Part shown: positions 14,378 to 18,818 of the stretch, in pieces
Layout of the letters: each line of letters opens with the position of its first letter
Numbering within the stretch: the first letter of the stretch is position 1
Assembly (NCBI RefSeq): GCF_055900595.2
Contig: NZ_CM148325.1
Strand: one strand, 5' to 3'
DNA length: 64,000 nt
Made by a program: the position numbers and the translations under genes
Notes under the pieces: model-generated
Seen by the model: only the letters and a program-made list of their open reading frames with translations
Database searches by the model: none
What the model was told of the DNA's origin: nothing

Positions 14378-15296
14378 ATTTAGCCATGTCAGCAAACTGT
14401 TCGGCACACAAAAAGCCGTTAACGATCTCAATCTCAATTTTCAGGAGGGGAGTTTTTCGGTGCTGATTGGTACATCAGGCTCCGGTAAATCCACCACTCT
14501 GAAAATGATTAACCGCCTGGTGGAGCATGACAGTGGCGTGATCCGCTTTGCCGGAGAAGAAATTCGCTCGCTGCCAGTGCTGGAGTTACGCCGCCGGATG
14601 GGCTATGCCATTCAATCTATTGGCCTGTTTCCCCACTGGAGCGTGGCGCAAAACATTGCTACTGTGCCGCAATTACAAAAATGGCCTCGGGCGCGGATCG
14701 ACGACCGTATTGACGAATTAATGGCGCTACTGGGGCTGGAGCCAAATTTGCGTGAGCGTTATCCGCATCAGCTTTCCGGCGGTCAGCAGCAACGTGTGGG
14801 AGTGGCGCGCGCACTGGCTGCCGATCCGCAAGTCTTATTGATGGATGAACCCTTTGGCGCACTGGACCCGGTAACGCGCGGCGCGTTGCAACAAGAGATG
14901 ACGCGTATTCACCGTTTGTTGGGGCGTACCATTGTGCTGGTCACTCATGATATTGATGAGGCGCTACGGCTGGCAGAACATCTGGTATTGATGGATCACG
15001 GTGAAGTGGTGCAGCAGGGCAATCCGCTGACGATGCTGACTCGTCCGGCGAATGATTTCGTCCGCCAGTTTTTTGGGCATAGTGAACTGGGGGTCCGCCT
15101 GCTTTCGTTACGTAGCGTGGCGGATTACGTGCGTCGCGAAGAACGGGCAGAAGGTGAGGCACTGGCAGAAGAGATGACGCTACGCGATGCGCTCTCCCTG
15201 TTTGTCGCGCGGGGTTGTGAAGTGCTGCCGGTGGTGAACACGCAGGGCGAGCCTTGCGGCACGCTGCATTTTCAGGATCTGCTGGTGGAGGCGTAA
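14370..15296 (+). CDS. yehX: ABC transporter ATP-binding protein YehX
   Basis: 308 aa; Walker [13 protein letters not shown] signature LSGGQQQR, C-terminal CBS-like region. Confidence 0.9.
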
Positions 15297-15300
15297 GCGT

Positions 15301-16032
15301 ATGAAGATGTTGCGCGATCCGCTGTTCTGGCTCATTGCTTTGTTTGTGGCACTGATTTTCTGGCTGCCTTACAGCCAGCCGCTGTTTTCTGCCTTGTTCC
15401 CACAACTGCCACGCCCCGTTTATCAGCAAGAAAGTTTTGCTGCTCTGGCACTGGCTCATTTCTGGCTGGTGGGAATTTCGAGTTTGTTTGCGGTGATCAT
15501 TGGCACAGGTGCCGGAATTATTGTTACTCGCCCGTGGGGCGCGGAATTTCGCCCACTGGTGGAAACTATTGCCGCCGTTGGGCAGACTTTTCCGCCCGTT
15601 GCGGTGCTGGCGATTGCCGTTCCGGTGATTGGGTTTGGTCTGCAACCCGCGATTATCGCCTTGATCCTGTACGGTGTGCTGCCCGTCCTGCAGGCGACAC
15701 TTGCCGGGCTGGGAGCGATTGATGCCAGCGTGACAGAAGTTGCTAAGGGTATGGGAATGAGCCGTGGACAGCAACTGCGTAAGGTCGAGCTACCGCTGGC
15801 GGCTCCGGTGATTCTGGCGGGTGTGCGAACTTCGGTGATTATCAACATTGGTACGGCGACGATCGCCTCAACGGTAGGGGCCAGCACGCTGGGTACGCCC
15901 ATCATCATCGGGCTTAGCGGATTTAATACCGCGTATGTGATCCAGGGGGCGTTACTGGTGGCACTGGCGGCGATCATCGCAGACCGCCTGTTTGAAAGGC
16001 TGGTGCAGGCGCTTAGCCAGCACGCAAAATAA
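15301..16032 (+). CDS. yehW: ABC transporter permease YehW
   Basis: 243 aa polytopic membrane protein. Confidence 0.88.
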
Positions 16033-16120
16033 AGGTATAACCTGCGAGCATGACGCCACCAATTCCGCCTAACGCCATAAAAAGGAACAGGGCGATGACC
16101 CCAATTTTAGCTATGCGCAT
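16013..16120 (-). CDS. yohO: Small membrane protein YohO (35 aa)
   Basis: Minus-strand [38 protein letters not shown] with a strong AAGGAG RBS; its 3-prime end overlaps the yehW stop region by about 20 bp (convergent). Confidence 0.6.
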
Positions 16121-16179
16121 AATGCACTCCTTATGTTAACGAAAGGATTGTACAGTAAAGCGCATTTGTTAACGAATCA

Positions 16180-16911
16180 TTAAATGCCGAGTGGGAAAAT
16201 ATCATGGCCTTGTTCCTGCCAACTGGTAAGTTGCTGCTGTTGGGCAGAGGTTCGATTTTCACCGCACCACACCAGCAATGTACGGCCTTCGAACAGTTCA
16301 GGGCGTAGTTGATTGAGCGAGTGGGCGAGGACATCAATGCGCCATCCTTGTTGACTGGCAATCCAGCCCTCTAGCCACAGACGGGTGGTATCCTGAATAT
16401 TCCAGCCAACCACCAGCGCATCTTTACCTTGTTTTTTACGTGCCGAAGCCAGACAAATGGCGATGTAGTTGATCAGTACGCCGTCGAGGATCGCCAGCAG
16501 CGCCTGGAGAGTCGGTTGTTGGCACTGAAGTCGTCGGCGCAGAGGAATAAACAGGTGCGTGGTGAGTGTCTGGGCGGGGTAATCCTGACCGCGCTCTTTG
16601 ATCCACGTTCGCAGGCTATGCAGATTGCCGCTTTGCAGGTAAGTCAGTAATGTTTCTTGCTGATCGCGCCAGCCGTTCTGCACATCAACATTTTCATTAC
16701 TGAGCAGCATTTTAACTTTGCTGACCTGCACGCCGTTGTCGATCCAGCGTTTGATCTCGCGGATCCGGTCAATATCGGCATCATTGAACAGCCGATGACC
16801 GCCGTCTGTCCGTTGCGGTTTCAGCAATCCGTAACGCCTCTGCCACGCGCGTAACGTGACAGGGTTAATATCACAAAGCAACGCCACTTCACCAATTGTG
16901 TAAAGCGCCAT
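16180..16911 (-). CDS. mlrA: MerR-family transcriptional regulator MlrA (csgD activator)
   Basis: 243 aa; N-terminal MerR HTH (MALYTIGEVALLCDINPVTLRAWQRRYGL). Confidence 0.9.
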   Translation of the reverse strand: MALYTIGEVALLCDINPVTLRAWQRRYGLLKPQRTDGGHRLFNDADIDRIREIKRWIDNGVQVSKVKMLLSNENVDVQNGWRDQQETLLTYLQSGNLHSLRTWIKERGQDYPAQTLTTHLFIPLRRRLQCQQPTLQALLAILDGVLINYIAICLASARKKQGKDALVVGWNIQDTTRLWLEGWIASQQGWRIDVLAHSLNQLRPELFEGRTLLVWCGENRTSAQQQQLTSWQEQGHDIFPLGI

Positions 16912-17132
16912 CGTCTCACCCTTGCTCGCGAGGTCCCAGTTTAACTTTAGACGCAGTTTTGCGAACCAGGTAGTTTTGCCCGTTTTTTGTTCATCTATAG
17001 GGTGATTTTATTTTTGCCAGGCGATTTTGAGTGATCGTACTCACGAATTCTCATTTTTCTGCAAGAGTTCAAAGAAAGTTAAACGCAGGCAATGTATGTT
17101 ACGCGTTTTAAAGGGAAGTGTGGTTTGCGGGT

Positions 17133-18818
17133 ATGTACGATTTTAATCTGGTGTTGCTGCTGCTTCAGCAGATGTGCGTTTTTTTAGTCATTGCGTGGTT
17201 AATGAGTAAAACGCCATTATTCATACCGTTAATGCAGGTCACGGTTCGTCTGCCGCATAAATTTCTCTGCTACATCGTCTTTTCCATCTTCTGCATCATG
17301 GGCACCTGGTTTGGGCTGCATATTGACGATTCTATTGCCAATACCCGTGCGATAGGCGCGGTAATGGGCGGCTTACTCGGCGGTCCGGTCGTCGGTGGGC
17401 TGGTTGGTCTGACCGGCGGGTTACATCGATATTCGATGGGGGGCATGACCGCGCTAAGTTGCATGATCTCGACCATCGTTGAAGGATTGCTCGGCGGCCT
17501 GGTACACAGCATCCTGATCCGTCGCGGGCGCACTGATAAAGTCTTTAACCCCATTACCGCCGGTGCCGTCACGTTCGTCGCTGAAATGGTGCAAATGTTG
17601 ATCATCCTGGCGATCGCCCGACCTTATGAAGATGCGGTGCGTCTGGTGAGTAATATTGCTGCGCCAATGATGGTCACCAATACCGTCGGCGCGGCGCTGT
17701 TTATGCGTATATTGCTCGATAAACGCGCGATGTTTGAAAAATACACTTCGGCTTTTTCTGCTACTGCGCTGAAAGTGGCTGCCTCGACGGAAGGCATTTT
17801 GCGCCAGGGGTTTAACGAAGTGAACAGCATGAAAGTGGCACAGGTGCTGTATCAGGAGCTGGATATTGGTGCAGTCGCGATTACCGATCGAGAGAAATTG
17901 CTGGCCTTTACCGGAATTGGTGACGACCACCATTTACCCGGCAAACCGATTTCTTCGACTTATACCTTAAAAGCGATTGAAACCGGTGAAGTGGTCTACG
18001 CCGATGGCAACGAAGTGCCTTACCGTTGCTCGTTGCATCCGCAATGCAAACTGGGTTCGACGCTGGTAATTCCGTTGCGTGGTGAAAATCAGCGGGTGAT
18101 GGGTACCATCAAATTGTATGAAGCCAAAAACCGTTTATTCAGTTCAATCAACCGCACGCTGGGCGAGGGGATTGCGCAACTGCTTTCGGCGCAGATCCTC
18201 GCCGGGCAATATGAGCGGCAAAAAGCGATGCTCACCCAGTCAGAGATCAAACTGCTTCACGCCCAGGTGAACCCCCATTTTCTGTTCAATGCGCTTAACA
18301 CCATTAAAGCGGTGATCCGACGCGACAGCGAACAGGCCAGTCAGCTGGTGCAGTATCTTTCCACTTTTTTCCGTAAAAACTTAAAGCGGCCTTCGGAGTT
18401 TGTTACTCTCGCCGACGAAATTGAACATGTGAACGCTTATCTGCAAATTGAAAAGGAGCGCTTCCAGTCGCGGTTGCAGGTCAGCATTGCTATTCCGCAA
18501 GAATTATCCCAGCAGCAATTGCCCGCGTTTACCCTGCAACCGATTGTGGAAAACGCCATTAAACATGGGACATCACAACTGCTGGATACAGGGCGAGTAG
18601 CAATCAGCGCCCGACGTGAGGGGCAACATTTGATGCTGGAGATCGAAGACAATGCTGGCTTGTATCAACCGGTAACCAATGCCAGCGGGCTGGGGATGAA
18701 TCTGGTGGATAAGCGTTTACGTGAACGGTTTGGCGATGACTATGGGATAAGCGTCGCCTGTGAACCTGATAATTACACCCGAATAACGTTACGACTGCCA
18801 TGGAGGGACGAGGCATGA
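17133..18818 (+). CDS. btsS: LytS-type sensor histidine kinase BtsS (YehU)
   Basis: 561 aa from [15 protein letters not shown]...; 5TM-Lyt membrane domain, GAF-like region, histidine-kinase C-terminus. Confidence 0.9.

Follow-up and report, generated by a model that had tools for sequence, protein, structure and literature searches.

The yohO gene and its product

The window analyzed in this study is the whole 64,000-nt stretch of contig NZ_CM148325.1 (assembly GCF_055900595.2), in which the genes of interest are arranged in the order osmF-yehY-yehX-yehW (+), yohO-mlrA (-) and btsS-btsR (+). The yehW gene (15301..16032, + strand) encodes a 243-aa ABC permease (BPD_transp_1, PF00528) and closes the osmF-yehY-yehX-yehW operon, which encodes a glycine betaine ABC transporter. 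The mlrA gene (16180..16911, - strand), whose product matched the MlrA profile with 550 bits, is the upstream, co-directional neighbor of a small minus-strand ORF at 16013..16120 that starts with ATG and consists of 35 codons plus a stop. Because an ORF listing of the surrounding 4.5 kb contained 63 ORFs of at least 20 aa, a length of 35 codons is uninformative on its own; this ORF is set apart as a gene by an equivalog match, a RefSeq annotation and purifying selection. The predicted protein scored 80.1 bits (cutoff, 57; E = 8.8e-23) against the NCBIfam equivalog NF010225 ("protein YohO"), with residues 1-35 aligned over the full length of the profile (positions 1-35 of 35), and RefSeq annotates yohO at coordinates matching those of the ORF. 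A Pfam-A profile search yielded no match for YohO, and the contig index labels the protein PF27791 UPF0387_membrane. Its profile match, its genomic position (as in K-12), the constraint on its coding sequence and its single predicted helix all place it in the YohO/UPF0387 family. The feature is therefore yohO, a genuine translated gene that is found mainly in Enterobacteriaceae.

In E. coli K-12, yohO is b4542, and the RefSeq entry for MG1655 places it at 2215657..2215764 (+), with yehW at 2215745..2216476 (-). The YohO proteins of the window and K-12 are identical, and between the yohO promoter and a point 190 nt beyond the stop codon the two sequences differ at a single, synonymous base (position 16082). 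Because the locus is nearly identical, published K-12 data on yohO apply directly to the window. When the yehW-yohO junction was used as a 401-nt query, matches of 95-100% identity were obtained for 5423 of the 5426 complete E. coli genomes, and all matched genomes were annotated with yehW, yohO and mlrA in this order. For E. coli K-12, annotation or earlier publications already cover the gene, its translation, the coding overlap with yehW, the transcript that extends antisense into yehW and the excludon label of the pair. New here are the survey of the overlap, the fixed position of the yehW stop codon, the dN/dS analysis together with a conserved TATAAT-like box belonging to yohO itself, and the existence of stand-alone homologs.

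The strong ribosome binding site that had been claimed for yohO was confirmed as a Shine-Dalgarno (SD) sequence, AAGGAG (16127..16132, - strand), separated from the ATG by the 6-nt spacer TGCATT. At the same spacing, (A/C/T)AGGAG or a close variant occurred in the 79 genome loci with an intact yohO. The gene is under purifying selection. Across 83 distinct orthologous CDS, codons 1-29, which lie outside the overlap with yehW, had a mean dN of 0.20, a dS of 1.16 and a dN/dS of 0.17, and for the core (codons 12-29) dN/dS was 0.10. Residues G19, I20, G22, V23, M24, L25, G27, Y28 and I31 were invariant.

The structure of YohO was predicted with AlphaFold2 from a 65-sequence alignment and was found to consist of one helix spanning residues 3-33 (pLDDT 92.4); the N-terminus bears R2 and K5. 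YohO is a 35-residue single-pass inner-membrane protein. In the model, a face of small residues (G18/G19, G21/G22 and A26/G27) appears to resemble a helix-packing motif. Published work on K-12 cites YohO as a membrane-bound small protein with Ribo-seq coverage, and it has also been seen by top-down MS. The equivalog match, the RefSeq annotation and the single predicted helix bear out the original prediction of a hydrophobic 35-aa YohO, and the Ribo-seq coverage and top-down MS detection document the translation on which that prediction depended. A published Shigella table includes yohO among the genes lowered under anaerobiosis. A literature search for the function or interactions of YohO returned no paper. 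The family is narrow: among 1.84 billion representatives, only 17 clusters (50% identity) were retrieved at E ≤ 0.001, many of them frameshifted copies. Searches of YohO against PDB chains (E up to 10) and against defense-system families (PADLOC) gave no match.

Promoter and transcript ends of yohO

The 140 nt upstream of yohO were aligned for 78 loci, and a TATAAT box was found to be nearly invariant (TACAAT in E. coli; TATAAT or TATACT in other genera). It is followed by approximately 7 nt, a conserved (C)GTTAACA and the SD sequence. This TATAAT-N7-TTAACA-SD layout was retained in L082, a locus from which mlrA is absent, and in other loci lacking mlrA. In the window the -10-like hexamer, TACAAT, occupies 16147..16152 (- strand), 27 nt before the yohO ATG, and is the putative -10 box of a promoter belonging to yohO. 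The alignment thus suggests that yohO most likely has its own sigma-70-type promoter, from which transcription is predicted to start near 16140, at a conserved CGTTAACA, which would leave a 5′ UTR of approximately 20 nt. The -35 element is ill-defined since the best -35-like hexamer, TTAACA, sits only 14 nt from the -10 box, and a consensus promoter scan did not call this promoter. The motif CGTTAACA occurs twice in the mlrA-yohO spacer (16134-16141 and 16167-16174, - strand), one copy just upstream of the SD sequence and the other 14 nt upstream of the -10-like box, and the copy next to the SD sequence is kept across genera. The spacer itself (59 nt) contained no terminator-like site by scan, so read-through from mlrA is possible and may add to yohO transcription. 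On the plus strand, a promoter-like site at 16095-16123 was discounted, as one such site was found where 1.2 were expected by chance.

Downstream of the yohO stop codon and downstream of the yehW stop codon, no intrinsic terminator (hairpin plus U-run) was found. A terminator-like site within yohO (16103-16088, - strand) contained three G-U pairs, lay inside the CDS and was rejected as a chance occurrence. In the Term-seq data of Adams et al. (2021; Supplementary file 1), in which yohO is represented by three entries, a dominant 3′ end lies at MG1655 2215813 (+) and is classified as "primary: yohO; antisense: yehW" (PMC7815308). Mapped onto the window, this end corresponds to position 15964 (- strand), which is 49 nt past the yohO stop codon and 69 nt inside the yehW CDS. 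The bicyclomycin data of the same study (Supplementary file 2) place a Rho termination region at MG1655 2215995 (+), antisense to yehW, with a Rho score of 5.6 and a significance of 9e-16 (PMC7815308); its equivalent in the window is 15782 (- strand), approximately 230 nt past the yohO stop. Over 280 nt beyond this stop codon the RNA is rich in C and poor in G (C/G of 1.3-2.0), which fits the published Rho dependence. Together with the published listing of the pair as an excludon, and given the near-identity of the window to K-12, the Term-seq 3′ end and the Rho region substantiate the convergent, overlapping transcription that had been proposed for yohO and yehW.

Folding with ViennaRNA placed a candidate stem-loop, GGCGGTC-TGCGAT-GATCGCC (15969..15988, - strand), in the yohO 3′ UTR, antisense to yehW codons. 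The published 3′ end falls 5 nt after this 7-bp stem-loop; if the stem pairs in an alternative register, the distance is 2 nt. In 83 sequences, 78% of cells were paired, compared with 75.7% in shuffles. The covariation score was 0.183 versus 0.150, was reached by none of 500 shuffles and was lower in slid controls; RNAalifold did not predict the stem from the aligned yohO 3′ region. The stem is made of the conserved yehW codons A-I-I-A-D-R, which explain most of the pairing, and the evidence for conservation of the stem-loop as such is weak.

Several other observations were made in the neighborhood. The first 13 codons of mlrA contain a terminator-like hairpin and T-run (16873-16907, - strand; stem 16907-16885, tail GCGTTGCTTT). 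A published Term-seq 3′ end classified as "internal" to mlrA (MG1655 2214904, window position 16873), 38 nt into the ORF, coincides with this hairpin, which points to premature termination, or attenuation, within the first codons of mlrA. The start of btsS is given as GTG at 17118 in the ORF list (566 aa) and, in RefSeq, 15 nt downstream of 17118 (L001 4734), at window position 17133 (+; 561 aa), an ordinary start-codon ambiguity. Genomic SELEX has located an RpoE-holoenzyme peak within yehW (type D, i.e., inside an ORF; intensity 4.0; W3110 coordinate 2214150, flanked by yohO and yehX; PMC5493296). An Rfam search of 15200-17200 returned nothing at E up to 1.

Conservation of the overlap and of the yehW stop codon

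The convergent coding overlap between yohO and yehW had been estimated at about 20 nt and is exactly that: it covers 16013..16032 and includes both stop codons. On the yohO side it comprises five sense codons and the stop codon, and on the yehW side six sense codons, the first of them partial, and the stop codon; 88 of the 108 nt of yohO lie outside yehW. RefSeq shows the same 20-nt overlap for a 100%-identical strain and for K-12 MG1655. In the wider survey, an overlap of 17, 20, 23 or 26 nt was kept in 153 loci from approximately 20 enterobacterial genera.

Three sets of loci were used. In the first, MlrA served as the anchor for a survey of 80 species-level Enterobacteriaceae genomes, which included Escherichia, Citrobacter, Salmonella, Enterobacter, Leclercia, Lelliottia, Kosakonia, Phytobacter, Pluralibacter, Buttiauxella, Atlantibacter, Franconibacter, Cedecea, Yokenella, Silvania and others. 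All 80 genomes possessed yohO together with a convergent yehW, and the coding sequences overlapped in 79, by 20 nt (33 loci), 23 nt (4 loci) or 26 nt (42 loci). The exception is Citrobacter amalonaticus AUH_CA_2023_1 (L009 3293-3400), where an extra T in a T-run (CTCTTTTTTACTG) breaks the yohO frame; this is probably an assembly error at a homopolymer and not a pseudogene. The second set consisted of contigs encoding two divergent YohO proteins (P0014 and P0015), in which a set of genes of the metG side or a TonB-dependent receptor gene, and not mlrA, lies upstream. In eight such loci without mlrA, yohO overlapped a yehW-type permease gene by 20 nt. Since the overlap is kept where mlrA has been replaced, yohO travels with yehW and not with mlrA. 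For the third set, metagenome contigs were scanned with a back-translated, degenerate DNA pattern of the YohO core, i.e., independently of the neighbors, and 73 loci were obtained. The overlap was present in 66 of the 69 evaluable loci, with lengths of 20 nt (41 loci), 26 nt (19), 23 nt (5) and 17 nt (1); four further loci were too short downstream. The overlap persists while YohO identity falls to ~50-55%. A homolog search with YehW, which addressed whether yohO might have arisen by overprinting the yehW 3′ region, gave relatives of at least 77% identity among the 120 matches listed. Taken together, the overlap is ancestral, vertically inherited and stable across Enterobacteriaceae.

Three of the 73 metagenome loci carry a yohO homolog with neither yehW nor mlrA nearby (L106 3762-3866, in yohO sense on the reverse-complemented locus; L141 211-315; L150 1307-1411). 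The encoded variant has 34 aa and the same core, begins with MN[LW]QKIGV[IV]FIFLLMA[LV] and ends with FIVRS. A TATACT-type box lies upstream of the stand-alone genes, and the stop codon is directly followed by a GC-rich hairpin in two of them, L141 and L106. Their neighbors, as judged by eye from translations, are a gene for a DUF3833-like lipoprotein, an Xre-like and RES-like pair, and idi; from the neighboring idi gene one might guess that the carriers are Erwiniaceae. Because such homologs occur without yehW, YohO does not need the overlap.

The yehW stop codon, TAA (16030..16032, + strand), is antisense to positions 2 and 3 of yohO codon 30 and position 1 of codon 31. All 87 genome loci had the stop codon at this homologous site. 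Residue 31 of YohO is invariably Ile (ATH) and residue 30 is Phe (TTY) or another residue encoded by NTY. Because codons 30-31 thus read NTY ATH, the antisense triplet is TAA or TGA in every case. In 19 distinct sequences codon 30 is GTN or CTN, and in each of these its third base is T or C, whereas among the other GTN and CTN codons of these genes 52% have a purine in third position. The nominal P value of this pyrimidine bias is 1e-6, calculated over sequences that are phylogenetically related, and a constraint on the third base of codon 30 is accordingly no more than suggested by the alignment. Such a constraint on synonymous choice would show selection on the yehW stop site, and would mean that the arrangement matters to yehW rather than being neutral.

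The length of the overlap equals 5 + 3 × (YohO length - 30), i.e., proteins of 34-37 aa give overlaps of 17-26 nt. Because this formula holds, all variation in overlap length stems from the C-terminal tail of YohO. The inner boundary of the overlap would be fixed by dual coding, the yehW stop being the reverse complement of the junction between YohO codons 30 and 31, and the outer boundary would move only with the length of the C-terminal tail. A stop codon locked in this manner would be sufficient to explain the persistence of the overlap without regulation. The constant phase of the overlap (2 mod 3) was also considered as evidence for selection and was set aside, as stop shifts and codon indels keep the phase; it speaks for common descent only.

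Possible roles of the overlap and comparison with known systems

We consider it probable (about 0.6) that yohO is an autonomous gene and that its overlap with yehW is chiefly a by-product of the compact junction that has been tolerated. The course of transcription that we propose is simple. With no intrinsic terminator on either strand at the junction, yohO transcripts would enter yehW, running antisense into its last 70-250 nt until Rho stops them ~230 nt downstream, and a stable yohO mRNA species would end 49 nt past the stop codon, beside the stem-loop. Transcripts of osmF-yehYXW would in turn run antisense through yohO and probably through its promoter as well. Whenever both genes are transcribed, antisense overlap is unavoidable, and interference or dsRNA formation is physically possible; any regulatory role of the overlap would amount to modest dampening at most. 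A boundary set by dual coding offers a simple, non-regulatory explanation for the persistence of such overlaps. The survey also contains observations that weigh against a mere by-product, namely that the overlap is kept over considerable divergence and the adjacency is kept despite changes of neighbor, and selection for linkage, rather than inertia, could be involved. The suggested constraint on codon 30 weighs in the same direction.

An alternative, which we regard as unlikely, is that the two genes form an excludon whose coupling has been selected, with transcriptional interference and cleavage of dsRNA by RNase III lowering the two genes mutually and so conserving the overlap. Several properties of the locus agree with this view: the yohO mRNA covers 69 nt or more of the yehW CDS in antisense, with an upper value of ~250 nt, no terminator separates the two genes, and the arrangement is kept in approximately 20 genera. 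RpoS dependence, which is common to mlrA and the yeh operon, speaks against mutually exclusive use. The overlap is confined to the very last bases of a four-gene operon, homologs of yohO occur on their own, and dual coding already accounts for the conserved boundary. A search of the literature for reciprocal-expression, dsRNA, RNase III or mutant data on yohO-yehW found none, and the original suggestion that the overlap could couple expression of the two genes gained no support from the evidence gathered. In the ExcludonFinder results, yohO-yehW is listed among 165 convergent excludons detected in half or more of 58 MG1655 RNA-seq samples (PMC12288877). Such a listing is nearly automatic, because overlapping CDSs force a coverage-based caller to score an overlap. 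The same source gives excludon pairs, as a class, a higher synteny than non-excludon neighbors (PMC12288877), which fits a selected regulatory role.

It is also conceivable, although quite doubtful, that YohO serves the adjacent OsmF-YehYXW ABC transporter as accessory subunit or regulator and that the linkage of the genes, including the overlap, reflects this partnership. Such a role has precedents in KdpF, AcrZ, MgtS and CydX, small membrane proteins that associate with transporters or membrane complexes, and the invariant small-residue face on the predicted helix of YohO is typical of helix-helix packing. In addition, yohO stays at the yehW 3′ end even where its other flank changes to metG-side genes or to a TonB-dependent receptor gene. 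Against this, yohO lies outside the operon on the opposite strand and, for this reason, is not co-transcribed with it. Neither co-transcription nor strict co-occurrence with the transporter genes was observed, as the adjacency seen in 153 loci stands next to three loci that carry a close homolog with neither yehW nor mlrA. No chain of solved structure matches YohO, and the literature search yielded no functional or interaction data that would connect it to the transporter. Less likely still is the stronger version, in which YohO is a dedicated partner or regulator of OsmF-YehYXW and the shared 3′ end, with the yehW stop lying within YohO codons 30-31 and the yohO mRNA bound to end in yehW, is a selected device for keeping the genes linked and setting their ratio by antisense transcription. 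If YohO proved to be a partner of the transporter, the locus would be a tidy case of linkage by overlap.

Finally, short ORFs are abundant in all frames of the region and Pfam-A gives no match, but the probability that the minus-strand ORF is a chance, untranslated ORF antisense to the yehW 3′ region is negligible in view of the curated equivalog HMM match, the 88 of 108 nt outside yehW, a dN/dS of 0.17 with saturated synonymous change, an ATG and SD sequence kept in the 79 genome loci with intact yohO, and the published Ribo-seq coverage, membrane-protein citation and top-down MS.

The yohO gene can be compared with several known systems. In size, in its single hydrophobic helix with small-residue motifs and in its position next to a transporter operon, YohO is similar to KdpF, AcrZ, MgtS and CydX. 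Proteins of the KdpF/AcrZ type that are genetically linked to their partner are usually co-transcribed with it or controlled by the same signal; yohO differs from the genes of these four proteins in being antisense-oriented and in having stand-alone homologs, and the likeness is one of form only. As in the convergent excludons reported with ExcludonFinder, where the pair is itself an entry, the transcripts of the two neighbors overlap (by virtue of the 20-nt CDS overlap and the published 3′ end) with no terminator between them (PMC12288877). What differs here is that the CDSs of yohO and yehW themselves overlap, and not the UTRs only, and that a small-protein gene of 108 nt is one of the partners. 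Excludons are defined by reciprocal expression and RNase III-dependent processing, and it is by transcript overlap that yohO-yehW is classed with them. The yohO transcript is itself one entry in the dataset of Rho-terminated antisense transcripts, from which it does not differ (PMC7815308). Compared with yohO of K-12, the gene in the window encodes the same protein of the same length, has the same neighbors (mlrA upstream and yehW in convergent orientation) and the same 20-nt overlap, and differs only by one synonymous base.
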